NCBI GenBank assembly: GCA_964573455.1
Contig: CAZNJW010000001.1
Span: 13,096-77,095, forward strand
Length of the DNA: 64,000 nucleotides
Direction of reading: 5' to 3'
Source: an uncultured Anaeromyxobacteraceae bacterium
GTDB taxonomy: Bacteria > Myxococcota_A > UBA9042 > DTJE01
A model generated the notes under the pieces. It was not told the origin of the DNA. It did not search any database and saw only the letters and a program-made list of their open reading frames with translations. This document shows, piece by piece, positions 1 to 57,848 of the stretch. Every line of letters starts with the position of its first letter. The first letter of the stretch is position 1. A program made the position numbers and the translations under genes.

Positions 1-10
1 TACAGACGAA

Positions 11-1390
11 ATGAATCTTCTCGCGACAGGCAAGGTCGCGACCGGCTCCGATCTCGAGCGACGCCTGCTCGAAAAGAACATGCTGATCGACGGAGAGGAA
101 GGCATCGACACGGCCAGCGAAGCATACGGGCGCAAGATGTCTTACCTGTACCGAGGCCCGGTCCTTCATATCATGGTGGTGACGCTGCGCTGCAACCAGG
201 TCTGCCGCTATTGCCATGCCAGCCGCGCCTCGCTGGGCGAGACCGAGACCGATATGTCCATCTCGACGGCGGAAAAAGTCGTCGACATCGCGATGCGCTC
301 ACCTTCCGACACGATAACGATCGAGTTCCAGGGCGGTGAACCGCTCGTAAACTGGGAGACGGTCCAGCACGTAGTCGAATACGGTTCAATGAAGGCGGTG
401 GCCGCGGGCAAGCGGGTCATGTTCTCGCTGGTTTCGAATCTTTCCCTGATGGACGACGAGAAGCTTTCCTACCTGGTTGAGAAACGGGTCCAGATATCAA
501 CCTCGCTGGACGGTCCCAAGGACATCCACGACGGAAACCGCCGACTGTCCGGCGCCAGCGCGCATGACAAGTGCGTGTACTGGATGGATCGAATCAACAA
601 CGCCTACGTTCAGGCCGGACTCGACCCGAAGCTGTACCATGTCGAGGCCCTAGCGACGATCACCCGCGAGCACTTCGGTCGCGCGAAGGACCTTGTCGAC
701 GAATATGTCGCACGCGGCTGCCGGGCGATCTTCATGCGGCCGCTGAACCCGTTCGGCTACGCCAAGAAGGCCGAGGACACGGCAGGCTACCCGGCCGAGG
801 ACTTCCTCAAGTTCTACAACGAGGCGCTGGACTACATCGTTGAACTGAACAGGCAGGGTGTCGAGGTCATGGAGCGCCTGGCCGCCATCTTCCTGACCAA
901 GATCATGACCCCGGACGATCCGAACTACCTTGATATCCGCAACCCGTGCGGAGCTGGAATCGGACAGATCGCCTACAACTACGACGGATCAATCTTCACC
1001 TGCGACGAGGGTCGCATGGTCTTCCAGATGGGAGACGATATATTCAAGCTGGGGGATGTCGGCAACATGACGCTCAAGGACGTCGTGACGCACGACACGG
1101 TCAAGACAATGGCGATGGCCTCGACCCTTGACTCGATCCCGGGGTGCTCGACGTGCGCTTACAAGCCCTGGTGCGGGACATGTCCGGTTTACAACTACGG
1201 CGAGCAGGGAAACATCTTCCCGCAGAACAGCACGAATCAGCGATGCCGGATTTACATGGGCGTGCAGGATCGGCTGATGCGCCATTTTGTCGCAAACGAC
1301 ACCGAAACGATCGACATCTTCAATCGCTGGGTCGAGGTCAAGGAACGAACCGAGTACCTTCACGACGGCCGCAGGGACTCATGCGGCTAG
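11..1390 (+). CDS. Radical SAM/SPASM-domain peptide-maturase-like enzyme (HxsB-like, first of a pair)
   Basis: CNQVCRYC (CxxxCxxC) near residue 58. C-terminal Cys-rich SPASM region (CGAGIG...CDEG...GCSTCAYKPWCGTCP). 459 aa fits the HxsB/'rSAM_paired_1' size class. Confidence 0.7.
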   Translation: MNLLATGKVATGSDLERRLLEKNMLIDGEEGIDTASEAYGRKMSYLYRGPVLHIMVVTLRCNQVCRYCHASRASLGETETDMSISTAEKVVDIAMRSPSDTITIEFQGGEPLVNWETVQHVVEYGSMKAVAAGKRVMFSLVSNLSLMDDEKLSYLVEKRVQISTSLDGPKDIHDGNRRLSGASAHDKCVYWMDRINNAYVQAGLDPKLYHVEALATITREHFGRAKDLVDEYVARGCRAIFMRPLNPFGYAKKAEDTAGYPAEDFLKFYNEALDYIVELNRQGVEVMERLAAIFLTKIMTPDDPNYLDIRNPCGAGIGQIAYNYDGSIFTCDEGRMVFQMGDDIFKLGDVGNMTLKDVVTHDTVKTMAMASTLDSIPGCSTCAYKPWCGTCPVYNYGEQGNIFPQNSTNQRCRIYMGVQDRLMRHFVANDTETIDIFNRWVEVKERTEYLHDGRRDSCG

Positions 1391-1454
1391 CCTGGGCGCG
1401 TTCAAACTGGCACGGCCGACCACATGAACGACCGGTGCCGCGGGGCAGCCTCGG

Positions 1455-2363
1455 ATGATGACTGAAAATCCAGTCAGGGCAGTCCTTAAAGTCACCTACT
1501 CCTGCAACTCCATGTGTCTTTTCTGCCGCGCCGCGGACTACCGTTGTTCGGTCCCGGACGAGCCGGCCGAGACCATTCTGAAAAAGGCTCTGGCCGCGAA
1601 AAATGCCGGAGCGTCCATGATCCTGTTTTCCGGCGGCGAGCCGACCCTTCGGCGAGACCTGTTCCTGCTGGCCAGGGGCGTCAGGGCTCTCGGAATGGAC
1701 TTCGGTCTGATCACGAACTGCGGCATGCTGGGCAACCCCGACTATCTTGGCAGGATGCTCTCCCTGGGTCTGAAATACGTGCACACATCCCTTCACGGCG
1801 CCTCCGCCGAAACACATCGCTCAATCACCGGCGCCGACACCTTCGACGCGGTCCTGCGATCGTTGGCGGCCCTTTCCGGGCAGGGTGTCGAGCTGCACGT
1901 CAACACCGTTCTAAACAGACGAAACGTGCGTGATCTGGCCGCCATAGGAGACCTGGTAGCTCCATTCGCTCCGATCACGCACAAGCTGTGTCTGATGGAA
2001 CCGCGCGGACTGTTCCATGATAACGAGGCCGCTCTTGCGATTCAGCCTGAGCTTGCCGGGCGCGCGGCCTGCGACGAGGTCGCCAGGACTGCGGGCAGAT
2101 ATCCGGAGGGCGGATTCAAGACGGTCGTCGAGGGTTTTCCCCTGTGCCAGATTCGCACCGCGCTCGACTCGGTGTCGAGTCTGCTCGAACACAACATCAT
2201 GTTCATGAGCGAAGGTTTCGAGGACGGTATCTACAGGTCCGATCACGGGGCCAGGCAGTTCACCGATATCTGCGACTCCTGCTCGAAACGAAACGAATGC
2301 CCGGGTGTTTATCCCGGCTATGTTGAACGGTACGGGGTAGTCGGATTGAGGGCATTCCGATGA
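1455..2363 (+). CDS. Radical SAM enzyme (second of pair, HxsC-like)
   Basis: CNSMCLFC radical SAM motif at the N-terminus, GGEP SAM-binding motif, C-terminal CDSCSKRNECPG. Starts 65 nt downstream of the first rSAM on the same strand. Confidence 0.65.
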   Translation: MMTENPVRAVLKVTYSCNSMCLFCRAADYRCSVPDEPAETILKKALAAKNAGASMILFSGGEPTLRRDLFLLARGVRALGMDFGLITNCGMLGNPDYLGRMLSLGLKYVHTSLHGASAETHRSITGADTFDAVLRSLAALSGQGVELHVNTVLNRRNVRDLAAIGDLVAPFAPITHKLCLMEPRGLFHDNEAALAIQPELAGRAACDEVARTAGRYPEGGFKTVVEGFPLCQIRTALDSVSSLLEHNIMFMSEGFEDGIYRSDHGARQFTDICDSCSKRNECPGVYPGYVERYGVVGLRAFR

Positions 2364-2386
2364 CCTGTGCGGTCGCGGTCGACACA

Positions 2387-4564
2387 CTACGGAACAACGT
2401 GCTCTCCCATCCTGACCGGAACTGAATCCTGGGAAACGACAGTGCAGTGCATGTTCACGTCGTTGTACTCGAAATCATTGGAGTAATCGAACGGCTTGCC
2501 GTCTGCGCCGAGCACATACGCGCTCAATTCGACCTCAATCGTGTCCGCGTCGAACCGATGCGGGGATGTGGAATCCGATGGAGTCGGATCGGGGTTGCCC
2601 AGATATGGCGTGGGGAAGCCCTCCGGAAAGACCGGAAGCGTGACCGACGAACGATCCGCCGGAACAAAAATCTCCCAGAGCGCGTGGGAACGCGGCCCAC
2701 CGAGAGTTCCGTCCTTGTTATTGCCCGAGGACAACGTGTTCCTGGGCGCGGCGGTGAGATAGTTCAGGCGCAGAACGTAAAGGTCGGGACTCACGGGACT
2801 GGACACCGGACGCCACCGGATCTTACCGGTAAACAGGTCCGGGGACACCGTGTCCAGCGGCATGTTGTGCGGCAAGACCGCCGGGTCAAGCAGTTCGGGC
2901 AGTTCAAGCCACGCGGACTGCGAGTCCAGATGAACCGTATCGCCCGGTTTGACCCCAGGCCTTACCGGAGTTGAGATTCCCGGCGGATCCCCGGCCTTGT
3001 ATGAAGCGCGGCCCGCCAGACCGACCGCCAGGTTCGTTATGCTCAGGCCGAGTTCCTTCAGAACCGGATCATCGGGATTCGGGAACTTGATCCTGATCGG
3101 ATTCTGGAAACCTTCCCGGTTGTAGTCGCCGTTAATCGAAACGAACATAAAACCCTCGCCGCCTGTATCGATGACCGGCATCGCTAGGGCATTCGGCATC
3201 GGGGTGCCGGTTTTGTAGTCGGTCGGAAGACTGCCGATGTACATCTGCACCGCGTCATCTTCCTGGGAGGAAAGGTCGATGTTCATCAGGATGTCGGCTT
3301 TGTTTACCTGGCCGGGCTTGACGTTGACCCGGGCAATTCCCAGCGCCATCGGCTTGAAATCGATCGTGTAGGGATCGTTGATCGTCGCGAGGGGGTCACC
3401 GACCGTTCCACCGAGCGCGAACACGAGATGCTGACCGGCCGGGACGTCCGACAGACTGTACACGGAATACGCGCAAGCATCGTCCTTGGCCGCCTGAACC
3501 GGATCGGAATACATGCAGAGCGACATGTTTCCGGGCACGCCGATCCCGACCGGCTGTTCGAGGATGCTGCCCATGGATATAGACGACAGAGGTCTGCCGT
3601 TGATCGCTGTCGATACAATGGCGACCGCGATCCTTCCATCGCCGAAAAGCGACGATGATGAGGGCAGCGGTTCAAGGCCACCCTCGCCCAGGAAACCCGA
3701 AACAAGGCCCTCTATCTGCCCGATCCCTGTTGCGGCATCCGAAGCCACCAGGTCGAGTGGATCAAGGACTACCGACACCGATGCGCCGGAGATGCCCAGA
3801 TAAGTGACGTACCTGTGTCCGGGCGCTCCGACCGTGACGTCGAAATTCGAAACCAGGGCCGCGTCGAAAAACTCCACCACGCCGGCCGGACCGGTCGTCT
3901 GGAACGGAATGGAGCCGGTCCCGGCATCGATGAACACCGAGGCTCCTTCAAAAGGCCTCAAAGCACCGTTGCCAGTGCGCTGCAACGCAGTCACCTTGAC
4001 GTGGCCGTTCGCCGGGCCTGCGCCCTGATCAGGCTCCGTGTTGACGCCGGGTACGGCGAGATGCTTCAACGATAGATCGATGCTGGCCCTGATCTTGTCG
4101 ACCCTTCCACCAAGGTTCTGACTTTCGGCACTCAGGACGGTCTCGGCCTTGACCGCGGAACATGCCGTCAACCTTCCGGAGCCGGTATGATCTGTCATCA
4201 CTTCACCGAGGTCGCCGAGCTCCCACGAGACCGAGACCTTTGCATTCCCCAGACCGAATCCGCGGCCATCCAGTACCCTCAGTCCCACCATCACGCAACG
4301 ATGACCTTCTTCGTTCTCGAATGCGGGACTGGCCGTAAGCCTTATCTGCGGATCTCCGGAAAGCGGATCGTCGTCCCAGCCATCGGGAACACCATCGTTG
4401 TCGGTATCGGATATCGACGAACCGGTTCCAAACAACAGTTCCTGAAGATCCGAAAGCCCGTCTCCGTCGGAATCGGCCCCGGGTCCGCGACCACACGATG
4501 TCGCTGTCGCAAGCGCTGAGCACAAAATCAGAACCGGCTGCAACGTGCGAAAACTTCGAGTCAT
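2387..4564 (-). CDS. Secreted lipoprotein with thrombospondin type-3-like Ca-binding repeats
   Basis: True start is MTRSFRTL...LILCSALATATSCG (lipobox). DTDNDGVPDGWDDDP TSP3-like repeat. The ATG overlaps the TGA of the upstream FadL-like gene (ATGA). Confidence 0.55.
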   Translation of the reverse strand: MTRSFRTLQPVLILCSALATATSCGRGPGADSDGDGLSDLQELLFGTGSSISDTDNDGVPDGWDDDPLSGDPQIRLTASPAFENEEGHRCVMVGLRVLDGRGFGLGNAKVSVSWELGDLGEVMTDHTGSGRLTACSAVKAETVLSAESQNLGGRVDKIRASIDLSLKHLAVPGVNTEPDQGAGPANGHVKVTALQRTGNGALRPFEGASVFIDAGTGSIPFQTTGPAGVVEFFDAALVSNFDVTVGAPGHRYVTYLGISGASVSVVLDPLDLVASDAATGIGQIEGLVSGFLGEGGLEPLPSSSSLFGDGRIAVAIVSTAINGRPLSSISMGSILEQPVGIGVPGNMSLCMYSDPVQAAKDDACAYSVYSLSDVPAGQHLVFALGGTVGDPLATINDPYTIDFKPMALGIARVNVKPGQVNKADILMNIDLSSQEDDAVQMYIGSLPTDYKTGTPMPNALAMPVIDTGGEGFMFVSINGDYNREGFQNPIRIKFPNPDDPVLKELGLSITNLAVGLAGRASYKAGDPPGISTPVRPGVKPGDTVHLDSQSAWLELPELLDPAVLPHNMPLDTVSPDLFTGKIRWRPVSSPVSPDLYVLRLNYLTAAPRNTLSSGNNKDGTLGGPRSHALWEIFVPADRSSVTLPVFPEGFPTPYLGNPDPTPSDSTSPHRFDADTIEVELSAYVLGADGKPFDYSNDFEYNDVNMHCTVVSQDSVPVRMGEHVVP

Positions 4565-5919
4565 CAGAATCCGAACCTCAGTGATACACCCGAATTCAGG
4601 AACCAGCCACCGCCACCCACGGCGGGATAACCCGGATTGCCTGGAATCAGCGAAGTCTTGACGTCGGTGTTGTCGATGACAGCCGCGGCCATGAAGTGGG
4701 TATCGACCGATATCCTGGGACCTCCGACGTGTTCGGCGTCGAAACCAATCCCGAACGAACCGGAGTACTGATCCCCTCCGAGCAGATTCGTCTCGCCCGA
4801 CTGAACCGGCAATGGACTCTGCGACCAACCGAACCCGGCACGCAAAGCCACGGCCTTGTGAGGACGATACTCCGCGCCAAGCCGAACGGTGACGCTGTCA
4901 CGAAGACCGGGGGACGGAATCGATGAAGAATCGGTCTCATCCTCCCGGCCGGGGTCCGAGAATACCTTGACCTCGGGCGAGGACATCCGGTACCCGCTGA
5001 ACAGATAGCAGATCACGTCAGCAGAAACCGAATAGTCGTCGGTCTTCCAGCCGGCCCCGAACGAAAACTCGTGCGGAGTCCAGTAAGCGATCGCGTTCAC
5101 CGTCAGATAGATCGGGTTAATGCTGCTTGACACCGTGGCGTCGACTGGCAGTTCGATATGGGTGCGATTCGAACCACGCCAGGAAAAACCAAGCGTAAGA
5201 CCTCGAATCGGTTCAAAAAGCAAACCAACATTCGCGGAGACGCGATAGCCGACGGTGACCGCGAGATGGTTCTGCGGATCCGCTGAACCGAGGTCCACGC
5301 TGACCAGCCCGCCAACCGAAGGAAGAATCGATGCTCCGACACCGACCATCAACCACTTCCAGCGTCCGGCCATCGCGACGTTAACCACCAGACGGGTATT
5401 GCGCTTCTCGTAGAACGGAAAGTTCGCCTCGGTAGGCCCGAGCGCCTCAACCGAGTACAACTCGGTCGCCGGGGTCTGCAGTTGAAGCCCGAAAAACAGG
5501 TGCCGATCGAGTCCTTTTCCCAGGGGGATGGGCGCGGCCACGCCGCCCTCAAGATAGACGGTCGCGCGATCAAAACGACGCTGCGAGACAGGAGATGTCA
5601 TCTTCGTTAAGTCATCGAACTCATTGAAACGGGCGTTCAGCCAGGGTCTGTAGACCGAAACACCCAGACCGAACTCCACCCGTTCCATCAGGCCGAGCGC
5701 GGCAGGGTTGTAATAGGTGGCGCTGTAGGAGTCCGCGGTTGCGGTTCCTGTGCCACCCATGGCGATCCCCACCGAACCGGAACCGAACTGATCCATGGGA
5801 TTCGACAGGGCCGGAGCGGACACGAAATACATGGCGGCGTGCGTCGCCGCGAGCAGCGCAAAGAGGATTCGCGTTCGAACGTCTGCCGACAAAGCCATCA
5901 TACCCTGGTGATGAAGCAA
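4564..5919 (-). CDS. FadL/OmpP1-family outer-membrane hydrophobic-compound transporter
   Basis: Signal peptide, YNPAALG (NPA motif), beta-barrel composition, C-terminal ...LRFGF ending in Phe. ~450 aa. Confidence 0.55.
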   Translation of the reverse strand: MLHHQGMMALSADVRTRILFALLAATHAAMYFVSAPALSNPMDQFGSGSVGIAMGGTGTATADSYSATYYNPAALGLMERVEFGLGVSVYRPWLNARFNEFDDLTKMTSPVSQRRFDRATVYLEGGVAAPIPLGKGLDRHLFFGLQLQTPATELYSVEALGPTEANFPFYEKRNTRLVVNVAMAGRWKWLMVGVGASILPSVGGLVSVDLGSADPQNHLAVTVGYRVSANVGLLFEPIRGLTLGFSWRGSNRTHIELPVDATVSSSINPIYLTVNAIAYWTPHEFSFGAGWKTDDYSVSADVICYLFSGYRMSSPEVKVFSDPGREDETDSSSIPSPGLRDSVTVRLGAEYRPHKAVALRAGFGWSQSPLPVQSGETNLLGGDQYSGSFGIGFDAEHVGGPRISVDTHFMAAAVIDNTDVKTSLIPGNPGYPAVGGGGWFLNSGVSLRFGF

Positions 5920-6007
5920 ACCGCCCAGAAATCCGGCGCGCGGTATTATAACTATTCGAAGGATCTAAATCCCTCAAAATTGCATGTGCCTGGGATTCTT
6001 AAACTAG

Positions 6008-6013
6008 TATAAT
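6008..6013 (+). promoter_or_regulatory. Putative -10 element (TATAAT) in an AT-rich divergent intergenic region
   Basis: Exact TATAAT about 33 nt upstream of the ATG at 6046, in a locally AT-rich stretch of a ~64% GC genome. Confidence 0.25.
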
Positions 6014-6045
6014 TCCCAATCTTGTTATTCCGAACAGGACAACAG

Positions 6046-8787
6046 ATGAAATCACATGTGAAATCTTGTCTGGGGATACCACTGCTCGTGATGCTTCTCG
6101 CTGTTTCCTGCGACGATGGATGGGGACAGGGTGAAGGGCTCGTGATCACCGCGGCCGTTGACCCTGCCAGTGTCATCGCGGGTTCCACCGTGCAGGTGAC
6201 ATGCTCGATTATCGAAGGGGACGTTTCAGCCCCGGTTCCGGACGCCACGATCGAGGTCACTCCGGCCGAGGGCGTGACGATAGACGGCCTCAGCATCGTC
6301 ACCTCCAGAGCGGGCGGGTTCGAAGTCATCTGCCACTCGGCATCGCTGCCTCTGGCCGAATCGGAATCGGCGGCTTTCCTCGTCACTGCGGGCGACCCGG
6401 CTGGAACGGTCGCCACCGTTTTTCCCGAAAACGTCAGCGCCGGAGAACCGGCGACGGTTGATTGCGCCGTGGTCGACGCCTTCGGGAACGTGGTGACCGG
6501 TTTCGAGTCGCTTCCCGAGGGTTCCGGCGCACTCGAGGTTGAAGGATTCACAGTCAGTTCCGAAACTGCTGGAGCATGGGAAGTCTTCTGCTCGGCGCCC
6601 GCCGAATTCCCGGATTGCGAAAAGACCCCGGCTATCCTGCAGGTGTCCGCTGGCCGGCCGATCAGCCTTGAAATGAAGCTGAACCCCGACAAGGAAAACT
6701 ACGCGCTCAAAGCGGCCATCAAGGTGTCCTGGCTCGTCACGGACGCCTGGGGGAACGTGGTTCCCGACCTCCCCGCGGACATCGTGATATCACCGACGGA
6801 AGGGCTGACCCTGTCGGGAAACACCCTCACGGTGAAACAGGAAGGAAGCTGGACTGTCACTGTTGCTCTGCGTGACTACGAGCTCTCGGACAGCGACCAG
6901 GTCAGGTGCGATCTGTCGGCGCCGGAACTTCAGATTGACTGGCCGCCTCGCGGCGAGACGGTCGAGGGTTCTCCGGAAGTGGAAGTTCGTGGCACCGTCA
7001 TCGACGCGGCCAACAGCGACGTCACGCTGAAGATCAACAAGGAAACCGTGGCGATTGGGGCCGACGGCAGGTTCTCGATGCCGATGACTGCGACACACGG
7101 CCTGAACGGGCTGCTCTTCTCAGTCAAGGATTCACAGGGATTCGAATACTCAACCACCCGCGGCTTCTACTACTCCGATTCCTGGACACCCATCGATGGC
7201 TCAACACTGATGGGCGACGTGGTCAGGGACGACGGTGCAATGCTCTTTCTGGGGCAGTCCTTCCTTGACGACGGTGACCATGACCGCACGCACCCGAACG
7301 ATCTCGCGACGCTGATTGAGATTCTTCTGTCCAGCAATGTGGGCGGCCTTCTGGATTCGCTTCCGCCGATCTCGGTTCCGATCCCTAACATCGTCAACTT
7401 CGGGATACTCGGCGTGCAGCTTCAGGGCGACCTCGAGATCGAGGTCCAGTTCCGGGATGTCAGCTTCGGCGAACCATACGTCGAAATACGCACCAGGGAC
7501 GGTGGAGTCGCCACCTCGGTCACTCTTCAGCCGGTGCACATCGGCCTGGATCTGAAGTTCACAATCAAGGCCAGGGCGATCGCCTTCGGCAACACCTACG
7601 AGCTTCTGGACCCGTCCAGTTCATCAGGTTCCTCGATGGAGATCGGCACGTTCGGACTCGGCGTGTCGCTGAACATCAACAAGACTCCTGATACCGACCT
7701 GACTGTTGAAGGCGATGACTTCGAGCTGACCATCGAGGACATCCAGCTCGATCCGATCGAACACCTTGAGATTGACCTCGGCACCATCGGCGCGCTGGGG
7801 ATCGATCTCGGCACGATCGACTTGACCAGAATCGTCGGCAGCATCGACGACCTGTTGATGAACTGGGTTCTTGAACCGATCCTGAACTTCCTGACTCCAC
7901 TGCTGACCGACCTGCTTGAGCCGCTCGTCGTCGAACTGATGGGCACCGTACTCGAAGCGCTCTTCGACCAGCTGAACCTGCAGCAACCTGTCGAGATACC
8001 GGCCATCGTCAGTTCCGGGACGCCTGTTACCATGGATCTCTCGCTGGCGCCGTCCACGATTGTGTTCACCACCTCGGGCGGCACGGTAGGCCTCGAACTG
8101 GGCTTCCTGACTGCCCACAAGGTTGATCACGATCCGATTGGCGTGATCGGAAGCCTGACCGACATCCAGAGCAACGCGTTCGCGTTCGACACCGAACCTG
8201 GCGTGCAGGCCGCTATCGACATCAAGACCATCAACACGCTGCTGTTCATGCTCTGGCAGTCGGGCTGGATCACCGGAAAAATCGATCTGTCCGGTCTGGT
8301 CGGCGACGTGGGCTTCGGCGTGGGGAACCTGATGATCACGCCCGATCTGTACCTGCCGCCGATAATCAACGACGGTCAGGCGGTTGGCGATGACGGGATG
8401 ATGGCACTCGAGATCGGCGACGCGTACCTCAAGGTTCAAGTCGACATTCTCGGGAACCCGCAATTCTTCGACCTCTGGTTGCAGATGGCGGTTCAGGTCC
8501 AGATAGTGGCAGACGGCTCCAACGTTGGAATCAGGTTCGGCAAGGTGACTTTCTTCCAGACCGAGTTCGTGAACAAGGGCGATCTGGGGGACCTTTTCGA
8601 CATGTTCCTTCCGTCGATTCCCGACCTGGTCCGATCGATCGAAGGCCAGGAATTCACCTTCCCGATCCCCGAGATCGACCTCGGCTCTATCATTCCGGGG
8701 ATCGAGCCCGGCACAATCGTGCAGCTCGGTAACGGCGTGTCCGATGTCAGGGAAGGAATGGTCGTGCTCGGGGCTGATCTGCTGTAG
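6046..8787 (+). CDS. Large secreted lipoprotein, hypothetical (N-terminal Ig-like repeats, C-terminal Leu/Asp-rich domain)
   Basis: MKSHVKSCLGIPLLVMLLAVSC lipobox. Repeated beta-rich segments. No recognisable catalytic motif. Confidence 0.5.
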   Translation: MKSHVKSCLGIPLLVMLLAVSCDDGWGQGEGLVITAAVDPASVIAGSTVQVTCSIIEGDVSAPVPDATIEVTPAEGVTIDGLSIVTSRAGGFEVICHSASLPLAESESAAFLVTAGDPAGTVATVFPENVSAGEPATVDCAVVDAFGNVVTGFESLPEGSGALEVEGFTVSSETAGAWEVFCSAPAEFPDCEKTPAILQVSAGRPISLEMKLNPDKENYALKAAIKVSWLVTDAWGNVVPDLPADIVISPTEGLTLSGNTLTVKQEGSWTVTVALRDYELSDSDQVRCDLSAPELQIDWPPRGETVEGSPEVEVRGTVIDAANSDVTLKINKETVAIGADGRFSMPMTATHGLNGLLFSVKDSQGFEYSTTRGFYYSDSWTPIDGSTLMGDVVRDDGAMLFLGQSFLDDGDHDRTHPNDLATLIEILLSSNVGGLLDSLPPISVPIPNIVNFGILGVQLQGDLEIEVQFRDVSFGEPYVEIRTRDGGVATSVTLQPVHIGLDLKFTIKARAIAFGNTYELLDPSSSSGSSMEIGTFGLGVSLNINKTPDTDLTVEGDDFELTIEDIQLDPIEHLEIDLGTIGALGIDLGTIDLTRIVGSIDDLLMNWVLEPILNFLTPLLTDLLEPLVVELMGTVLEALFDQLNLQQPVEIPAIVSSGTPVTMDLSLAPSTIVFTTSGGTVGLELGFLTAHKVDHDPIGVIGSLTDIQSNAFAFDTEPGVQAAIDIKTINTLLFMLWQSGWITGKIDLSGLVGDVGFGVGNLMITPDLYLPPIINDGQAVGDDGMMALEIGDAYLKVQVDILGNPQFFDLWLQMAVQVQIVADGSNVGIRFGKVTFFQTEFVNKGDLGDLFDMFLPSIPDLVRSIEGQEFTFPIPEIDLGSIIPGIEPGTIVQLGNGVSDVREGMVVLGADLL

Positions 8788-8792
8788 ACAGT

Positions 8793-9503
8793 TCACAACA
8801 TCAGTGACGCCAGGACATCGTCCAGGGATGCATCCTTCGATGTGCCTTTGTCCGTGGTCTCATCCAGGGTGTCTGCCTCGGCGTCCATTTCCTTGTGGCA
8901 TCCACTGATGGCTCCATCAACGGTCGCGGCGGGGCCACAGTGTTTCAGAACGAAATTCTTACGCAGCCTGGTCAGCGCGGTGCGCTCTGTCCTGCACACG
9001 GTCGCCGCGCTTATCCCCAGAACCTCCGCCACCTCGCGACATGTCATGCCTTCAAAGAACCTGAGTCGGATGATCTCGCGTTCGTCGTGGTCCAGAAAGT
9101 CGAGTCCGTCCAGGTCCGAGCCGAGAAAGCGCGAGAACCTCATCAACATGACCCCTGATTCGATCGAACGGTTCGGACAGTTGTCGTGATCCTTGCGGTA
9201 CTGAATCTGGTCCTGAGGGTCGTCTTCGGTCAGTCTCTCCCTGGATCTGCGGCAGATGTCCCTGACGTGATCGAACATGGCGCCGCTGGCACGTTTTCCT
9301 GCGTACGTCGAAAGCGCGCAACCTCTGTCGGGATCGAATCGCCCGACCGCCTCCATCAATCCCACGAAGCCTTCCTGAAGGATGTCCTCACGGTCGGCGG
9401 GCGACCAGTAGTCGCGCCTGAACCTGGTCGCCAGACGCCTGACAAGAGGAACCAGCGCCGAGAGTGTCGTGATCTGCTGCCGAACCTGATTCGTCGTTTC
9501 CAT
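8793..9503 (-). CDS. RNA polymerase sigma factor, sigma-70 group 3 (FliA/WhiG-like) with a C-terminal Cys/His extension
   Basis: Region 2 (ILQEGFVGLMEAVGRFDPDRGCALSTYAGKRASGAMFDHVR), region 4 HTH (MTCREVAEVLGISAATVCRTER), ~50 aa tail HCGPAATVDGAISGCH. Confidence 0.7.
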   Translation of the reverse strand: METTNQVRQQITTLSALVPLVRRLATRFRRDYWSPADREDILQEGFVGLMEAVGRFDPDRGCALSTYAGKRASGAMFDHVRDICRRSRERLTEDDPQDQIQYRKDHDNCPNRSIESGVMLMRFSRFLGSDLDGLDFLDHDEREIIRLRFFEGMTCREVAEVLGISAATVCRTERTALTRLRKNFVLKHCGPAATVDGAISGCHKEMDAEADTLDETTDKGTSKDASLDDVLASLML

Positions 9504-9674
9504 CTGTCTTTTCCTCCAGGATGATGGGAGGTTCACATTTCAAGAAGCGTGCCTGAACTGAAGCGAACATCTGCCAGACGCGCAGATCCGTCACAACTAT
9601 TCGAATTCTAAAGACAATATGGCCAGCGCCCTGATTTCAACCAAGACTGCGACAGTTGAATTTCGATCCTCTTC

Positions 9675-9695
9675 AAAGGGGGCGTCTCCCCCTTT
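9675..9695. promoter_or_regulatory. GC hairpin (AAAGGGGG-CGTCT-CCCCCTTT) in the divergent intergenic region
   Basis: Perfect 8-bp inverted repeat between the sigma-factor start and the lipoprotein start. No U-tract, so not a canonical terminator. Confidence 0.3.
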
Positions 9696-9845
9696 CGCGG
9701 GGGTTTCTCACCCAGCGGTCGGGGATTTGAAGCAGACCGAGGTTTCAGTGTCGCCCGGGTGCTGGAAATGACTGAGACCAAAGGCTATAATGGCGTCCAA
9801 GTCTTACGACTGGTTTTTCTTCTCTTTGTTTACAGGTGGCTTCGA

Positions 9846-11399
9846 ATGAACAAGCGCTTTCTGCTGGTCTTGCTGACTGCCGTCGCCTTCGCGGGATGTG
9901 GGACAGATCCCAATGTTGACAACGACATCGTTGGCGCGGATGACACGACCGACGAGGATGTGGTCGATCCCCTTGAGGACGTCGTGCTTCCGGATGGCGC
10001 GATCTGCATGCCCGGTACAGGCAGGTGTTCTGCCTCAAATTATCTCGTGTGTAAGGAAGACGGTTCGAACTACGACGTGATCCCCTGCAATGGCGGTTGC
10101 GACGACAGGACGGGCTGTAAAGACCAGCAGACATGCACTCCGCTGACCACCAGATGTAACGACGACGGCACGGTTCAGGTGTGCCTTGGCGACGGTTCTG
10201 AATGGTCCGAGGCGACAAACTGCCCTGAAGGCGAAGTTTGTATTGCTGGCGGCTGCATGACCGAGAGCTGCATCCCCGGCGCCAGTCAGTGCATCGGCAA
10301 CACGCTGGTCTCATGTGCCGGCGATCCGGCGAAATGGGTTGAGCAGGAATGCGGAACCAAGGCGATCTGCTTCAAGGGCGACTGCGTTGAATGTGTCAAC
10401 GACGATCAGTGCGCGCTCGGAAACGAGTGCCTGGACGGGCATTGCACTCCGGTTCCCCTGTCGATCGCCACTCCTTACCTGCCCGAAGGCCAGATCAAAA
10501 TAGCTTACAGCGCGACTCTCGAGGCGATGGGCGGAGTACCTGAGTACACGTGGTCGCTGGTGTCCGGCACAATGCCAACCGGCATCCTGATGTCGAACGA
10601 CGGCGCGATAAGCGGAACCCCGAGCCAGGCCGGCAACTACGAAGTCGTCATCGGCGTGACCGACTCCAAGGGCGCAACGGTGCAGAAGCCCTACGAGATC
10701 ATCATCCACGAGGAAGGTCTCAGCATCATCAGCAAGTCTCCGCTTCCCGACGCCGAGGAAGGCACGGACTACTCGTTCCAGTTCCAGGCGCTCGGTGGAA
10801 AGGCACCTTACGGGTGGATGATTATCGAGGGCGCTCTCCCGGACGGCTTGACTATGTCCTCTGACGGCGCGATCACCGGCATCCCGAACGCGCACGGGGA
10901 TTTCACATTCAAGGTCCGCGCCATCGACATCGATGATCCGCCGTCGTACGACTCCCGCGAGTTCACCCTGCACGTCGCGATCGCGCCGCTGGTGATTTAC
11001 GGCGACCAGGAATTCAACCTGTTCATCACAAAGGCGATCATTCTGCCAGTTATCACCACCGGCATCGGGCTGCCCTACAACGAACAGCTCAAGGCAAAGG
11101 GCGGCGTGAAGCCCTACACGTGGCAGGAATCGCAGATGTCGATGCTGCTCGAGATGCTGATCCCGAAGTCGGGCGTGCCGGAAGGACTGACGCTCAGTTC
11201 CGAGGGTGTCCTGTCAGGCAGGGTCACCAGTGTCGACGAGGCAGTCAAGCTCGACCTCAGTATGATTGGCATGGACTACGTGCTCGAGGGATTCTTCTTC
11301 ATGGCCACGGTGACCGACGCGCAGAACCCTGCCGATTCGGACCAGGCAATCTTCGTCATCCCGACCATTCCGATAGATCTCGGCGGCCTCGGAATCTGA
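9846..11399 (+). CDS. Lipoprotein with myxo-type cysteine-rich repeats and putative Ig (He_PIG/cadherin-like) domains
   Basis: MNKRFLLVLLTAVAFAGCG lipobox. About 5 Cys-rich repeats (C..G.C....C..DG....C..GC). Repeated 'LP.GL.MS.DGAI.G.P' Ig-like segments. Confidence 0.6.
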   Translation: MNKRFLLVLLTAVAFAGCGTDPNVDNDIVGADDTTDEDVVDPLEDVVLPDGAICMPGTGRCSASNYLVCKEDGSNYDVIPCNGGCDDRTGCKDQQTCTPLTTRCNDDGTVQVCLGDGSEWSEATNCPEGEVCIAGGCMTESCIPGASQCIGNTLVSCAGDPAKWVEQECGTKAICFKGDCVECVNDDQCALGNECLDGHCTPVPLSIATPYLPEGQIKIAYSATLEAMGGVPEYTWSLVSGTMPTGILMSNDGAISGTPSQAGNYEVVIGVTDSKGATVQKPYEIIIHEEGLSIISKSPLPDAEEGTDYSFQFQALGGKAPYGWMIIEGALPDGLTMSSDGAITGIPNAHGDFTFKVRAIDIDDPPSYDSREFTLHVAIAPLVIYGDQEFNLFITKAIILPVITTGIGLPYNEQLKAKGGVKPYTWQESQMSMLLEMLIPKSGVPEGLTLSSEGVLSGRVTSVDEAVKLDLSMIGMDYVLEGFFFMATVTDAQNPADSDQAIFVIPTIPIDLGGLGI

Positions 11400-33651: not shown

Positions 33652-33805
33652 TTCCTGAACATCTTATCTTCCGCGACGAAAGATAGCGGAAAAATGCCAA
33701 AATTGGCAGGACATCGACACACCGGCCGGCTGGCGCTAAAGTTCACGGCGGACGAAACAGCTCGGCGGGTTCGCCAGGGCCATATCCGGGAGATCAGGAG
33801 GTCCA

Positions 33806-35335: not shown

Positions 35336-35365
35336 GCCTGGTCAACGCACGGCCGACGTGATCTC

Positions 35366-49399: not shown

Positions 49400-52300
49400 T
49401 CAGAGGTTCTGGACGGACGGATTCTCGGGGGTGCCACCATCAAGGATCTGGATCTCAACCTTGTTGACCAGTGCCGGATAACCGGTTCCAGCCGGGATGA
49501 GGCGACCCATGATGATGTTTTCCTTGAGGCCGCGCAGCCTGTCTTCCTTGCCGGAGATGGCGGCTTCCGTGAGGACGCGCGTGGTCTCCTGGAAGGAGGC
49601 GGCGGACAGGAACGATTCGACATGCAGCGACGCCTTGGTGATGCCGAGCAGGATCGGTTCGCCGACGGCCGGTGCCTTGTCTTCATCGAAAAGCCTGTTG
49701 TTCTCTTCTTCGAATGCCCAGCGGTCAACATGCTCGTCAACCAGGAACCTGGAGTCGCCGGCCTCGGTGATCTTCACCCAGCGCAGCATCTGGCGGACGA
49801 TGACCTCGATGTGTTTATCGTGAATTCTGACCGACTGCAGACGATAAACTTCCTGGACCTCGTCGACCAGGTACTTCGCCAGCGCCTGAATCGAAAGAAC
49901 CCTGAGGATGTCGTGCGGATTCGACGCGCCGTCCATCAACGGATCGCCGGCACGGACTTCGTCGCCTTCGCGCAGGCTGACGTACTTTCCCTTCGGGATC
50001 AGGTACTCGATCTTCTCTCCGACTTCCGGGGTGATGACGATCTTGCGCTTGCCCTTCGTCGCCTTTCCGAACGAAACGATACCGTCAATCTCGGAGATGA
50101 TGGCATGTTCCTTTGGCTTACGGGCCTCGAAGAGTTCGGCGACACGGGGCAGACCGCCCGTGATGTCCTTCATCTTGGTCGTTTCCTTGGGAACCCTGGC
50201 GATGACGTCGCCGGGGAATATCTCGTCACCCTCGGAAACCGTGATGTTGGCGCCGACCGGCAGCAGGTACTTCGCCTCGAGGTTCCTGCCCGGGATCACC
50301 TTCGTCTTGCCCTTCTTGTCCTTTACCATGATGCACGGACGGGCATCGACGTCCTTGGACTCGATCAGGACCTTGCGGGACATACCGGTGACCTCGTCGG
50401 TCAATTCCTTGACCGTGACGCCCTCGATGATGTCCTCGAACCGGATGACGCCGTCGACCTCGGTAAGGATCGGGTTCGACCACGGATCCCACGAGGCCAG
50501 TGTCGCGCCGCCCTGTACCACCTGCGCATCACGCACACGCAGAACTGAACCGTACGGCACCGGGTACTTTTCACGCTCGCGGCCCTGCTCATCCAGTATC
50601 GCGATCTCGCCGTTGCGGTTCATCACGACCAGTTCGCCGTTACGACGCTCGATCGTGTTGAGGTCATTGAACTTGACCGTACCGGCCTTGCGGGACTCCA
50701 GAGAACTCTGCTCGGAGACGCGGGCCGTACCACCGATATGGAACGTACGCATCGTGAGCTGGGTTCCCGGCTCGCCGATCGACTGGGCGGCCATGATGCC
50801 GACCGCCTCGCCGATGTTGACCAGCCTGCCCCTTGCCAGGTCGCGCCCGTAGCACAGCGCGCAGCAGCCAATCTTGGTGCGGCACGTCAGGACCGAACGG
50901 ACCTGAACCTTCTCGATACCGGCGTCGATGATATCCTTCGCCTGCTCTTCCTCGATCTCCTCGTTCGCATGAACGATCACATGGTCCGGGTTGTACGGAT
51001 CCACGATATCGTCGATGGCGACGCGGCCGATGATTCGATCGTAGAGAGGCTCGCGGATTTCGCCGCCGTGGACCAGGGCCGAGACCTCGACCGAGTCCAG
51101 GGTTCCGCAATCGTATTCGGAAACGACCAGGTCCTGCGCCACATCGACCAGTCGCCTGGTCAGGTAACCGGCGTTTGCCGTCTTGAGCGCTGTATCGGCC
51201 AGACCCTTACGGGCACCGTGCGTGGAGATAAAGTACTCGAGAACCGACAGTCCCTCGCGGAAGTTGGCGATAATCGGAGTCTCCATGATCTCGCCGGACG
51301 GTTTCGCCATCAGGCCTCGCATGCCAGCGAGCTGCCGCATCTGCATCGCGGAGCCTCGGGCACCGGAATCGGCCATGATGAAGATCGGGTTCATCGACGG
51401 AACCTTCTTCATCTCGCCGTCGATCTCGACGACATCCGTCGAAATACCGTCCATCATCTTCTTCGCGACTTCGTCGGCCGCGCCGGACCAGCAGTCGATC
51501 ACCTTGTTGGTTTTCTCGCCGTCGGTGATCGAACCTTCCTGGTACTGGTTCTCGATGTCGGCAATCTTGGTCCGGGCCTTGTTGATAATCTCGTCCTTCT
51601 CGGCCGGGATAACCATGTCGTCCGCGCCGATGGAAATGCCCGCGCGGGTCGCCTGAGTGTATCCCCAGGTACGAATCTGGTCGGCCAGGATGACCGTGTC
51701 CTTGGAACCGCAGTTTCGGTAGGTCTCGTCGATCAGGTTCGACAGGGCCTTCTTGTCCATGACTCGGTTGTAGAGACGGAACGGGATGGACTCGGGAACG
51801 ATCTCCTTGAGCAGGGTTCGACCGACCGTCGTCTCGATCATCTCGCCGTCGATGCGAACCTTGATCTTCGCCTGGATCTCGATGTCGGCGGCGTCGTACG
51901 CCACGCGGACTTCCTCGGGGCTGCAGAAAACCCTGCCCTCGCCGCGGGCGCCGGGACGTTCGCGGGTCGTGTAGTACATGCCCAGAACGATGTCCTGAGA
52001 CGGGGTGATGACGGAACGTCCATCAGCCGGCTTCAGGATGTTGTTCGAAGACATCATCAGGACGCGCGCTTCCATCTGCGACTCGAGCGACAGAGGCAGG
52101 TGAACCGCCATCTGGTCACCGTCGAAGTCGGCGTTGTAGGCGGCACAGACCAGCGGGTGAAGCTGCAGGGCCTTGCCCTCGATCAGTACCGGCTCGAACG
52201 CCTGCATGCCGAGGCGGTGCAGGGTCGGTGCGCGGTTGAGCAGGACCGGGTGTTCCTTGGATACTTCCTCGAGAATGTCCCAGACCACCGGGTTTTCTTC

Positions 52301-53503
52301 TTCGACCATCTTTTTGGCGGTCTTGATCGTCTGCGCGTAGCCGCGTTCTTCAAGCTTGTTGAAGATGAACGGCTTAAACAGCTCCAGCGCCATCTTCTTC
52401 GGAAGTCCGCACTGGTGAAGCTTCAGTTCCGGACCGACGGTGATGACCGAACGGCCGGAGTAGTCGACGCGCTTTCCGAGCAGGTTCTGGCGGAACCGGC
52501 CCTGCTTTCCTTTCAGCATGTCGGACAGGGACTTCAGCGGACGACGGTTCGTGCCGGTGATCACCTTGCCGCGGCGGCCGTTATCGAACAGGGCGTCCAC
52601 CGCCTCCTGGAGCATGCGCTTCTCGTTCCGGATGATGATCTCCGGGGCGTTCAGCTCCATCAGCTTCTTCAGGCGGTTGTTCCGGTTGATTACGCGACGG
52701 TAGAGATCGTTAAGGTCCGATGTCGCGAAACGGCCACCGTCAAGGGGCACCAGGGGGCGCAGGTCGGGCGGAAGGACCGGCAGATTCTTCAGGATCATCC
52801 ACTCGGGCCTGTTGCCGGAATCGCGCAGCGCCTCCACGACCTTCAGACGCTTGGAGAGCTTCTTAAGCTTCGCGTCGGAATTCGACTCGCGAACCTCGGC
52901 TCGAATCTTGTCCGCCTCGGTGTCGACATCGATCCGCTCGAGGAGGGTGCGGATGGCCTCGGCGCCCATACCGGCCGTGAAAGCGCCGTCGCCGTACTTC
53001 TCAAGAAGTTCCTCGTACTTTTCCTCGGAGATGACCTGGGTGACCTCGAGTTCGTCAACCACGCCCGGGTCGATCACGACGTATGCGACGCAGTAAAGAA
53101 CCTTCTCGAGGTCCTTGAGCGTAATGTCGAGAACGTTGCCGATGCGGCTGGGAATGCTCTTCAGGAACCAGATGTGGGCCACCGGCGAAGCGAGTGTGAT
53201 GTGACCCATCCTCTCGCGCCGAACCTTGCTCTGGATCACCTCGACGCCACACTTCTCACACACGACGCCACGATGCTTCAGGCGCTTGTAACGGCCGCAA
53301 TTGCATTCGTAGTCCTTTACGGGCCCGAATATCTTGGCGCAGAACAGGCCGTCGCGCTCAGGCTTGAACGTGCGGTAGTTGATCGTCTCGGGCTTCTTGA
53401 CCTCGCCGTAGGACCACCCGAGGATGGTCTTCGGTGAAGCAAGCGACACCCGCATGCCTTCGACCAGGAGCGGATCCCTTGGCCTCTCGAAAACGGTGAA
53501 CAT
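49400..53503 (-). CDS. rpoC: DNA-directed RNA polymerase subunit beta'
   Basis: NADFDGDQM active site, zinc-finger Cys, length ~1370 aa. Confidence 0.97.
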
Positions 53504-53553
53504 GTCCTTCACGGCCACCCCCAAATACAAGCATCAACAACGATGCCGTGGAG

Positions 53554-56500
53554 CTAGATCTGTGCCTCGTCCGCCTCAATAAGCTGGGCGTCGATAGCAA
53601 GGGACTTCAACTCCTTCAACAGGACGTTGAAGACCTCGGGAAGCCCGGCGTGTACGTTGTACTCACCCTTCACGATCGAATCGTACGTGGCGGTACGGCC
53701 CGCGACGTCGTCGGACTTGACCGTGAGCACTTCCTGCAGCGAGTAGGCTGCACCGTAAGCCTCGAAGGCCCACACTTCCATCTCGCCGATACGCTGACCG
53801 CCGAACTGCGCCTTGCCGCCGAGCGGCTGCTGCGTGACAAGCGAGTACGGACCGGTGGAACGCGCATGCATCTTCTCGTCGACCAGGTGGTGCAGCTTCA
53901 TCACGTACATGACGCCAACCGTCACCTCGGAATCGAACGCTTCGCCGGTTCTTCCGTCGAACAGCGTCGTCTTGCCGTGTGTGGCGAGTCCGGCCTCTTC
54001 GAGCCACAGCTTGATCTCGGCCTCGTTCGCGCCGTCGAAAACAGGCGAACCGACCGGGATGCCCGTGGTCGTGTACTGCTTCGCGAAATCGATCACCTCG
54101 CCGTCCTCGAGCTCCTCGATGATCTTCTTCATAGTCGGAGTGGTGAACAGCTTCAGGAACTTTTCGCGCAGCGCCTTGACACCGCCCTTGTCGACCAGCT
54201 CGGCGATCTTGGAGCTCATCTCGCGCGCGGCCCATCCCAGGTGGGATTCCAGAATCTGTCCGACGTTCATTCGGGAAGGAACGCCGAGCGGGTTCAGAAC
54301 CACGTCGACCGGACGACCGTCGGCCAGGTAGGGCATGTCCTCGACCGGCAGAATCCGGGAGAGAACACCCTTGTTACCATGGCGGCCGGCCAGCTTGTCG
54401 CCTGGCTGGATCTTGCGCTTGATAGCGACATAAACCTTGATGGTCTTGATGACGCCGGGGGGCAGCTCGTCCCCGCGCTTCATCCTGGCGACTTTGTCCG
54501 CAAATTTCTGCGAAATCAGAGCCTTCTGGGACTCCATCGCTTCAATCAGCTGATGAACGCGGTGTTCGGTCGCGTCATCCGTCAGGCGGATCTGCGACAA
54601 AGCATCGATGGCGAGGTTCGCCATGTCGGCAGCCTTCAGCTTCGCGTTCTTCTTCAGGATCACATCGCCGTTGCGGTTCGTGACGGGTGCCGCGACCGTG
54701 CAGCCTTCGAGCAGCGCAACAAGGCGCTCCCGCATGGCACGGGTCATGACGCGCAGTTCGTCGTCGCGATCCTTGTTCATCGCGGCTTCTTCAGCGTCCT
54801 CGAGTTCGCGCGTCCGGTCGTCCTTTTCGGCGCCCTTGCGCGAGAACACCTTGGCGCCGACCACGATGCCGGTGACACCCGGCGGGACACGCAGCGACGA
54901 ATCCTTAACGTCGGCAGCCTTCTCGCCGAAAATCGCGCGCAGAAGCTTTTCTTCCGGTGAAAGCTGCGTCTCGCCCTTCGGGGTAATCTTGCCGACCAGG
55001 ATGTCGCCGGTCGTAACCTCGGCGCCGATTCGCACGATACCGCTGGAGTCCAGGTTCGCCAGCGCCTCTTCCGAGACGTTCGGGATGTCCTGGGTAATCT
55101 CCTCGCGACCAAGTTTGGTGTCGCGGGACACGCACTCGAACTCCTCGATGTGGATGGATGTGAAATAGTCCTGCTGGACCATCCTTTCCGACATCAGGAT
55201 CGAGTCTTCGAAGTTGTATCCGCCCCACGGCATGAACGCGACAACCACGTTCTGTCCGAGCGCCAGTTCACCCTGCTGGGTGGCCGAACCGTCGGCCAGA
55301 ACCTGGCCCCTGGCGATCTTCTGACCCTTGTGGACCAGCGGCTTCTGGTTGATGCAGGTATTCTGGTTCGACCTGCGGTACTTCGTCAGCGTGTAGATAT
55401 CCGGAACGAGCGTGTCTCCGTCGATGTCCTCGCCGGTACGCCGGATGACGATGCGGTTCGCGTCGATGGACTCGACCACGCCTTCGTGTTTCGCGTAGAT
55501 CAGGACGCCCGAATCACGCGCCACGACCCATTCCAGGCCGGTGCCGACGGTCGGAAGCTCCGCCCTTACGAGCGGAACGCCCTGACGCATCATGTTGGCG
55601 CCCATCAGAGCGCGGTTCGCGTCGTCGTGTTCCAGGAACGGAACGAGAGCCGCCGCGACCGACACGAGCTGGGCCGGGGAAACGTCGATAAGGGTCACTT
55701 CGTCCGGGGGGACGGCAGGGTATTCCTCGTTGCGACGAGCCTGAACCAGGTCGCCGAGCAGGAAACCGCTCTCGTCGACCGGGACGTCGGCCTGGGCGAT
55801 CGTCTCGTCCTCTTCTTCCATCGCGGTCATGTAAATGACTTCATCGGTGACCCTGCGGTCGACGACCTTCCGATAGGGCGTCTCGATGAAACCGAAATCA
55901 TTGACGCGCGCATAGGTGGAAAGAGACGAGATCAGACCGATGTTCGGTCCTTCCGGCGTCTCGATCGGGCACACTCGACCGTAGTGGGTCGCGTGAACGT
56001 CTCGAACCTCGAATCCCGCGCGATCCCTGGTGAGACCGCCCGGTCCGAGCGCCGACAGACGACGCTTGTTCGTGATCTCGGACAGCGGGTTGGTCTGATC
56101 CATGAACTGGGAAAGCTGCGACGCGCCGAAGTATTCCTTCAACACGGCGGAAACCGGCTTCGCGTTCACCAGGTCGTGAGGCATCAGCGTGGCGAGATCG
56201 GGCGAGGAGCCCATCTTCTCGTGGATCGCCTTCGCCATCCTGACCATGCCGATGCGGAACTGATTTTCCATCAGTTCGCCGACGGCGCGGACGCGACGGT
56301 TCGAAAGCTGATCGATGTCGTCGACCCTGGCCCCGGGCTTGCTCATCCTGAGATCGAGCAGGTACTGGACCACGTTGAAGAAGTCCTCGCGAAGCAGAGT
56401 CGTCTGATCCAGCGGGATCTTCTGGTCGAACTTGAAGTTCATCTTCAGGCGTCCGACGGCCGAAAGGTCGTAGCGGGCACTGCTGAAGAAAAGGCTGTTG

Positions 56501-57687: not shown

Positions 57688-57848
57688 CCTGGCCTTCCAC
57701 CTTGTGAAGATTTAACGATCACCTGCGGGAACGGCGGGTGCCGCACCCACGCGCCGCAAGCCCGTAAAGGCATACGGCAATGGGCCGGACACCACGCCGA
57801 GACCCCCGGCGGGTGCCGACCCATCTAAAAACTGTATCGCCGTCCGAA

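Follow-up and report, generated by a model that had tools for sequence, protein, structure and literature searches.

The first 2363 nucleotides of a 64,000-nucleotide stretch of DNA from an uncultured Anaeromyxobacteraceae bacterium (contig CAZNJW010000001.1, positions 13,096 to 77,095; the whole stretch is hereafter called the window) encode two radical S-adenosylmethionine (SAM) enzymes. This region (2..2363) very probably represents the last two genes of a four-gene cassette conserved in Myxococcota, which is a variant of the HXS (His-Xaa-Ser) maturation module without a His-x-Ser effector in cis. The other two genes, seen in relatives, encode HxsD-family proteins, of which the longer bears a C-terminal tail with a nearly invariant peptide unit. 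This identity of the cassette, combined with the tail as the target of the two enzymes, is the explanation that we consider best as a whole, and it is advanced with a confidence that falls slightly short of even.

Two Radical SAM Genes at the Edge of the Window

A preliminary description of this DNA, made from the sequence alone, had placed two neighboring same-strand radical SAM open reading frames (ORFs) at 11..1390 (ORF1) and 1455..2363 (ORF2). Both were found there with 64 nucleotides between them, and the region is now described as follows.

2..1390, forward strand: hxsB, truncated at its 5' end by the window edge; SPASM-type radical SAM maturase, 462 of ~494 codons present
1391..1454, forward strand: spacer of 64 nucleotides between hxsB and the second gene, read from the sequence
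1455..2363, forward strand: HxsC-like radical SAM enzyme (rSAM2, ORF2), 302 aa; radical SAM core and C-terminal auxiliary-cluster motif

ORF1 is incomplete. It had been thought that the window begins at the first radical SAM gene, but the window starts inside hxsB, approximately 33–35 codons in. This is indicated by the reading frame, which is already open at base 2 and contains no stop codon in bases 2–10, by the match to the HxsB model TIGR03978, which starts only at model position 34, and by the alignment of window position 5 with position 8551 of the public contig L001, ~100 nucleotides inside a 494-aa hxsB (8452..9936). The window is colinear with four such contigs (L001–L004) at 90.8% identity over 12 kb. 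The length of 459 aa initially given for ORF1 is hence an artefact of the window edge; the full SPASM domain claimed along with it was recovered as a seven-Cys arrangement (C313, C331, C379-x2-C382-x5-C388-x2-C391, and C412), for which the Pfam SPASM score was marginal (19.8 vs the cutoff of 21.5). Both ORFs matched the radical SAM family PF04055, and the CX3CX2C motif was located at C61/C65/C68 in ORF1 and C17/C21/C24 in ORF2. The C-terminal CxxC...C tail described for the 302-aa ORF2 was also present (C273-x2-C276-x5-C282).

A scan of window positions 1–6200 detected no promoter-like sites, no terminator-like site in the spacer between the two genes, and, between the genes that converge, no terminator of informative value. 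The corresponding spacer is 16–64 nucleotides long in relatives, or the genes overlap, which suggests that hxsB and the rSAM2 gene are co-transcribed. Furthermore, the two genes were adjacent in every related locus examined, so their pairing is not due to chance.

Assignment of the Two Enzymes

Truncated as it is, ORF1 scored 499.8 bits against TIGR03978, the HxsB equivalog model (cutoff 370), and the full-length HxsB (494 aa) of a ~95%-identical relative scored 527.7 bits. The window protein was 95.4% identical to residues 34–494 of the L001 HxsB. Among the other families, PapB gave 125 bits and the anaerobic sulfatase maturase model (TIGR03942) gave 94.1 bits against a cutoff of 349, the HxsB score being four times that of any other family. 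The comparison with anaerobic sulfatase maturases, proposed earlier as a check, thus came out for HxsB (499.8 vs 94 bits), and the maturase assignment was rejected on score. ORF1 is a genuine HxsB. The HxsB/HxsC pair that had been proposed, to be scored on TIGR03978 and TIGR03977, stood only for this first member, since ORF2 reached 75.7 bits on the HxsC model TIGR03977, under its cutoff of 267.9.

rSAM2 matched PF04055 at 78.9 bits and HxsC4 (NF038332) at 77.7 bits, the latter under the cutoff of 500. Members of its family reached no more than 90 bits on TIGR03977, on which a control HxsC from Paraburkholderia scored 381.5 bits. For the family members of L010 and L025, HxsC was the top NCBIfam match with full model coverage (~90 bits). 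BLASTP aligned residues 5–301 of rSAM2 with two canonical HxsC proteins at ~23% identity, and a multiple alignment of rSAM2 with canonical HxsC displayed seven common Cys columns, comprising CX3CX2C, the “LC” Cys, and CxxCx5C. The four Cys residues of the auxiliary site of rSAM2 (C231, C273, C276, and C282) align with Cys columns of canonical HxsC; the CxxCx5C group matches the second Fe-S site of HxsC, and mutation of that site in E. coli HxsC (C342/C345) impairs the enzyme (PMC13128918). Approximately 60 homologue clusters sharing 45–95% identity, mostly from Myxococcota metagenome-assembled genomes (MAGs), constitute the relatives of rSAM2, and C17, C21, C24, C179, C231, C273, C276, and C282 are invariant in this family. 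Canonical HxsC consists of 392–405 aa; rSAM2 lacks its N-terminal domain of ~110–125 residues and starts 16 residues before CX3CX2C. As judged by these sequence comparisons, rSAM2 is not HxsC by curated criteria, yet it is a distant full-length homologue of HxsC. Its AlphaFold2 model was obtained with a predicted local distance difference test score (pLDDT) of 92.6, and a fold search gave BlsE, SkfB, SuiB, and MoaA as the nearest structures (template modeling score 0.6–0.67), with PqqE also near. On this predicted structure, the neighbors fix the class of the enzyme, not its specific reaction.

The idea of a “split HxsC”, with an HxsD-like protein standing in for the missing N-terminal domain, was rejected at an hhalign probability below 1%, where the HxsC N-terminal profile consisted of two sequences only. 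Separately, “long-form” relatives of rSAM2 were observed, which carry a C-terminal extension of ~270–300 aa with a class-I methyltransferase-like motif (LDIGCG) and a weak match to the DVU_1556 methyltransferase family (L025:5962-7785, L028:5992-7794, and L030:5676-7361; also L031, L032, L034, and L035). Their best match is HxsC4. The methyltransferase-like fusion of L025 stands within a full four-gene cassette, and neither HxsB nor HxsD was seen within 6 kb in L028 and L031–L035.

A Four-Gene Cassette in Relatives

The loci of relatives were found via the encoding contigs, a GTDB genome scan, and profile annotation of their ORFs. This yielded ~20 related cassette loci, mostly from Myxococcota, in which gene order was scored where the locus extends far enough upstream. 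The genes hxsD-long and hxsD-like and the first ~33 codons of hxsB lie off the window and are known from relatives that are ~91% identical at the DNA level. The order was HxsD-long (~175 aa), HxsD-like (71 aa, NF038315), HxsB, and the HxsC-like radical SAM enzyme, and all four genes were present in this fixed order in L001–L011, L014–L022, L024–L026, and L033, down to 43% identity of rSAM2. The HxsD gene that had been predicted upstream is hence present in the ~91%-identical relatives, whose HxsD-long scored 57.7 bits on TIGR03976 (cutoff 50). The 71-aa HxsD-like protein of the relatives scored 65.4 bits on NF038315 (cutoff 41), and its gene overlaps the start of hxsB by 4 nucleotides. With hhalign, the domain of HxsD-long was homologous to canonical HxsD (97.3%), and the 71-aa protein was a truncated paralogue of the HxsD domain (97.2%). 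The cassette remains unbroken even where its flanks are wholly different, as in L010 (archease/RtcB and CTP synthase neighbors), L017, and L025.

HxsB, HxsD, and HxsD-like protein are already named by NCBI in these MAGs, and the components of the cassette are themselves not unknown. In the searchable literature, no description was found of the form without HxsA, the short HxsC-like enzyme, NF038315 or “HxsD-like”, or the tail and its repeats described below. PADLOC-DB 2023 contained no Hxs models and gave only generic viperin-like radical SAM matches.

Absence of a His-x-Ser Effector in cis

The preliminary description expected a small His-x-Ser-repeat precursor just upstream. A six-frame scan for at least 3 H-x-S motifs within 30–60 residues recovered the repeat proteins of the canonical control loci L012 and L013 and of the distant L027, L029, and L030. 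The same scan gave no HxS-repeat ORF in the 64-kb window, including 62 kb downstream, and none in the ~20 Myxococcota-type cassette loci, including 10 kb upstream of the cassette in relatives. The expected precursor is thus absent from all of these regions. Because no repeat precursor was found, an outcome that the preliminary description itself had named as speaking against it, the reading as a canonical Hxs system fails. Its premise that HxsA normally lies upstream holds only for HxsA2-type loci, such as some plasmid loci that carry hxsA2 upstream. In the characterized systems hxsA comes last, the arrangement hxsD-hxsB-hxsC-hxsA being found in 99.6% of them, and HxsA is located within the operon in more than 99.8% (PMC13128918). 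The slot downstream of rSAM2, where hxsA would sit, measures 23 nucleotides from the stop codon of rSAM2 to the end of the convergent gene.

The Tail of HxsD-long as a Candidate Substrate

Canonical HxsD is ~94 aa long, and HxsD-long has ~65 extra residues at its C-terminus. This tail is composed of a variable Pro/Ala-rich linker, the segment LPPEVAKLLxEEEDxLDFLDDPxGIA(V/I)PWEEKYGK, and a variable charged end, of which DDPxGIAxPWEEKYGK is the nearly invariant unit. The residues D146, D150, P151, G153, I154, A155, W158, E159, and K161 are invariant among proteins that are 32–37% identical overall, including those of archaeal MAGs. AlphaFold modeled residues 10–111 of HxsD-long, the domain, with pLDDT >90 and the tail, which includes one short helix, with low confidence, so the tail is predicted to be disordered. 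In a fold search with the HxsD domain, no PDB match was significant; the best, to small alpha/beta sandwiches, had E = 5e-3. The domain did not resemble a recognition element (RRE) of ribosomally synthesized and post-translationally modified peptides (RiPPs). When a 42-position profile of the tail was searched against 1.84 billion representative proteins, 326 clusters (50% identity) matched at E ≤ 1e-3, and most of them were 130–200 aa long and carried the motif close to their C-terminus. DDPxGIAxPWEEKYG was repeated two or three times in tandem, with variable acidic linkers in between, in P0164, P0165, P0168, P0170, P0171, P0180, P0250, and P0256. The gene hxsD-long furthermore holds the position that hxsA2 takes in hxsA2-hxsD-hxsB-hxsC loci.

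Stand-alone PWEEKY peptides as free precursors were considered and rejected; matches of 41–76 aa look like fragmentary gene calls, and none was established as a precursor. Long N-terminal extensions were noted in P0237 (319 aa), P0239 (370 aa), and P0251 (459 aa), all of which keep a C-terminal PW(E/D)EKY. Two of these extensions are Lys/Ala/Pro-rich and histone H1-like, and one is an unrelated N-terminal region of ~340 aa.

We tentatively regard the tail of HxsD-long as the best substrate candidate for the radical SAM pair. The main argument is that a short invariant unit, repeated on a flexible tail beside two radical SAM enzymes of the peptide-modifying kind, is comparable to the HxS repeats of HxsA. 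By analogy with HXS, the HxsB, HxsC-like, and HxsD-fold proteins would act together in the cytoplasm on a protein substrate. With help from the HxsD-fold proteins, the two radical SAM enzymes would modify the DDPxGIAxPWEEKYGK unit, which a flexible linker joins to HxsD-long, so that HxsD-long would unite recognition domain and substrate in a cis-fused precursor. The candidate chemistry is a carbon–carbon or carbon–heteroatom cross-link in which the invariant Trp, Lys, Glu, or Tyr takes part; the SPASM/twitch enzymes StrB/SuiB (Lys–Trp) and PqqE (Glu–Tyr) would provide the precedent. It is possible, though this too is held below even confidence, that the HxsB/HxsC-like pair matures no His-x-Ser protein at all and that the PWEEKY unit on an “HxsD-leader” constitutes a new radical-SAM-modified class with a vertically inherited, non-defense role in Myxococcota. 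If true, the product might be, e.g., a Trp–Lys or Glu–Tyr cross-linked peptide or a protein-derived cofactor, and the class would occur widely (326 clusters at 50% identity) among Myxococcota, archaeal, and other uncultured lineages.

Several points weigh against this explanation. The upstream genes were read from relatives ~91% identical to the window rather than from its own contig, which neither an exact look-up of the rSAM2 protein nor a 50-nucleotide exact DNA search of GTDB genomes recovered, and an HxsA-type gene may exist elsewhere in the genomes, of which ~72 kb around the locus was examined. The sequence after the motif varies, an uncommon feature for a RiPP core at the C-terminus. 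A PWEEKY tail and an HxsA-like HxS-repeat protein coexist outside Myxococcota, in L029 and L030 (both Woesearchaeota) and in L095, so the tail is not simply a replacement of HxsA. Repeats on disordered tails fit multivalent binding, and docking or scaffolding of the enzymes through a multivalent motif would be an equally possible role of the tail.

The last two points lead to the alternative that survives best, that the cassette is an ordinary HXS-type system whose HxS-repeat substrate or effector is encoded elsewhere, the PWEEKY tail docking or scaffolding the radical SAM enzymes or another partner. In L029, L030, and L095, the HxsA3/A4-like repeat protein indeed comes right after hxsB, together with a tail-bearing HxsD-long and HxsD-like, and more HxsC-like paralogues go with more tail repeats, as in L094 with five extra radical SAM genes and two repeats. 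HxsD-family proteins are known enzyme partners, as canonical HxsD physically binds HxsC (PMC13128918), and the tail has the character of a short linear motif within disordered sequence. Against this stand the lack of an HxS gene within 6–10 kb in the ~20 Myxococcota-type loci and in 62 kb of the window, set beside the presence of HxsA in the operon of more than 99.8% of characterized systems, and the intactness of the four-gene unit when the flanks wholly change (L010, L017, and L025), which suggests self-sufficiency. We consider this alternative rather doubtful and rate the tail as substrate above it.

Repeat-bearing loci of other composition were also observed. One such locus (L094:447-9075 and L095:140-9080) has the genes of HxsD-long, here with two PWEEKY repeats, of HxsD-like, and of HxsB, to which it adds those of an Arc_PepC-like peptidase and five HxsC-like radical SAM paralogues. 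Directly after hxsB, it encodes an HxS-repeat protein that is cut off by the end of the contig. Its HxsB is nearer to the Myxococcota HxsB (321 bits) than to the proteobacterial HxsB (~210–224 bits). L027:2214-10821, from a MAG labelled Candidatus Saccharibacteria, encodes an HxS-repeat protein with seven repeats that ends in ...GSHGSHGNW, followed by five HxsC-like radical SAM genes; HxsB and HxsD were not detectable at this locus, which is possibly an HxsA4/HxsC4-type system.

Neighboring Genes and Chromosomal Setting

The remaining features considered in the window are as follows.

2387..4567, reverse strand: lipoprotein with bacterial TSP3-like Asp-rich repeats, 726 aa; convergent, weak TSP3_bac match, a frequent neighbor
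4564..5919, reverse strand: FadL/Toluene_X-family outer-membrane protein, PF03349 at 48.5 bits; first gene of the convergent pair
within 31090-39289: metH, 853 aa
35366..37336: sulfatase
49400..57687, reverse strand: rpoC and rpoB
within 49400-63308: tuf, flanked by tRNA-Thr/Tyr/Gly/Thr and tRNA-Trp

The convergence of the radical SAM pair on a FadL-like outer-membrane protein/TSP3 lipoprotein operon, pointed out in the preliminary description, is real. In 14 of 18 loci, the two proteins are encoded next to the cassette; they share one distribution across loci and are absent beside it in L010, L017, L023, and L025. The FadL/lipoprotein pair is a frequent neighbor and at most a putative member of the system. 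The mechanically called lipoprotein ORF (2387-4828, reverse strand) extends to 813 aa from TTG, and its homologues are 717–727 aa; translation probably starts at the ATG at 4567 (MTRSFRTLQ..., lipobox ...ATATSC), which gives a 4-nucleotide overlap with the FadL stop.

These neighbors could themselves be the substrates, the radical SAM pair maturing the FadL-like protein and/or the TSP3 lipoprotein before export, in the manner of HxsA, which is exported after its modification in the cytoplasm. Their adjacency in 14 of 18 cassette loci, vs 10 of 17 with rpe upstream, fits this idea, as does L021, where the pair is inverted, co-directional, and located immediately downstream of rSAM2. However, neither the four loci named above nor any archaeal locus has the pair next to the cassette, the adjacency in the 14 loci could stem from inherited synteny, as these are phylogenetically related, and no conserved motif emerged as a candidate from the two proteins, which were looked at without depth. 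Such maturation is therefore considered improbable, and the adjacency may represent inherited synteny (rpe and the ABC-F gene are also often kept upstream) or a loose functional link. L021 (6680-12578), from an “Oligoflexales” MAG, has the FadL-like protein, the lipoprotein, and a TonB-dependent receptor after rSAM2 on the same strand, and pyruvate kinase upstream of the cassette instead of rpe.

Upstream of the cassette, the relatives carry rpe, an ABC-F gene, and groEL. The window itself has core-chromosome content at 31090-39289 and 49400-63308, namely metH, the sulfatase, an M49-family peptidase, rpoC/rpoB, and tuf. Such a conserved place in the core chromosome points to a housekeeping or envelope-related function rather than to a mobile defense island, and the syntenic core-genome setting argues weakly against a defense-island role. 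Window positions 6022-11399 encode a 921-aa secreted-looking protein (glucodextranase domain-B-like immunoglobulin fold) and a 546-aa He_PIG immunoglobulin-domain protein, and a sigma-70-family sigma factor of the extracytoplasmic-function-like type lies at 8793..9536 on the reverse strand. The genes of 6022-11399 are syntenic with the FadL/lipoprotein pair in close relatives, which suggests an envelope gene cluster.

Two further readings are less probable still. The cassette might be a decaying remnant of an HXS defense system that lost its effector and has no function left, as would fit the absence of HxsA and the shortness of the HxsC-like protein. This reading is disfavored and very improbable, as the four genes are intact, the cluster-binding Cys residues are invariant across the ~60 clusters at 45–95% identity, the tail motif is invariant across phyla, and the cassette was kept through several changes of genomic context. 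That ORF1 is an anaerobic sulfatase maturase or another non-Hxs SPASM peptide maturase, the two radical SAM genes being neighbors by coincidence, finds some room in its generic SPASM similarity to such families (anaerobic sulfatase maturase, 94 bits; PapB, 125 bits; others) and in the sulfatase gene of the window, but is hardly credible and already refuted by the HxsB equivalog score (499.8 vs the cutoff of 370) and the HxsD and HxsD-like genes always found upstream of hxsB in relatives, the sulfatase being 33 kb distant.

Comparison with Known Systems

HXS was shown in 2026 to be an anti-phage barrier that blocks DNA entry, with the HxS-repeat protein HxsA as the effector (Li et al., Nat Commun 2026, PMC13128918); it occurs in E. 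coli, Klebsiella, and other Pseudomonadota. The cassette resembles this system in that its HxsB scores above the cutoff of the same equivalog model, an HxsD-fold protein is encoded upstream (in relatives), giving the gene order D-B-C, and a second radical SAM gene lies directly downstream of hxsB and encodes the same CX3CX2C and four-Cys auxiliary site. The cassette HxsB is only ~37% identical to that of the antiphage system. In contrast to HXS, the cassette has no HxsA effector, with neither HxS repeats nor a peptidoglycan-binding protein, its HxsC-like enzyme lacks the N-terminal domain of ~110 aa and fails TIGR03977, and it possesses an extra HxsD-like paralogue and the HxsD tail of ~65 aa with the invariant PWEEKY unit. 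The pair would work like the HxsB/HxsC module and has the same fold in its accessory proteins, but the cassette as a system lacks what defines HXS, the HxsA effector, and its second enzyme stays under the HxsC cutoff. The hosts and the distribution also differ: the cassette is found in Myxococcota at a conserved core-chromosome position, whereas 99.7% of HXS systems belong to Pseudomonadota and their distribution is patchy and transferable.

NCBIfam covers further Hxs variants, such as the HxsA2 loci (hxsA2-hxsD-hxsB-hxsC, e.g., Paraburkholderia pSYMBR3459), HxsA3/HxsA4 with HxsC4 (NF038332), and HxsD_rel (NF038315). The 71-aa protein is a bona fide member of NF038315 (65.4 vs 41), and the non-Myxococcota relatives L029, L030, and L095 combine the HxsD-long/HxsD-like/HxsB core with HxsA3/A4-like repeat proteins. 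Unlike these variants, rSAM2 is far under the HxsC4 cutoff (77.7 vs 500), and the Myxococcota form has no nearby HxsA of any subtype.

At the class level only, the cassette is comparable with PqqA/PqqD/PqqE, MftA/MftB/MftC, and StrA/StrB (SuiB), in which, likewise, a SPASM/twitch radical SAM enzyme and a small accessory protein act on a short conserved peptide with many Glu, Tyr, Trp, and Lys residues; the closest structures to rSAM2 include SuiB, SkfB, and PqqE. It differs from them in that the HxsD fold, for which no PDB structure matched significantly, does not belong to the PqqD-type RREs, that the candidate peptide is fused to an accessory-type domain instead of being a free precursor, and that two radical SAM enzymes are present without peptidase or other tailoring genes. 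A module that lacks HxsA, occupies a core-genome position, and carries a peptide on HxsD raises the possibility that the module is older and more versatile than phage defense, and that HxsD-family proteins may act as substrates or scaffolds and not just as accessories. Expressed alone, HxsA is insoluble (PMC13128918); unlike it, a 16-residue target tethered in cis to a small and likely soluble protein could make the reaction tractable in vitro.

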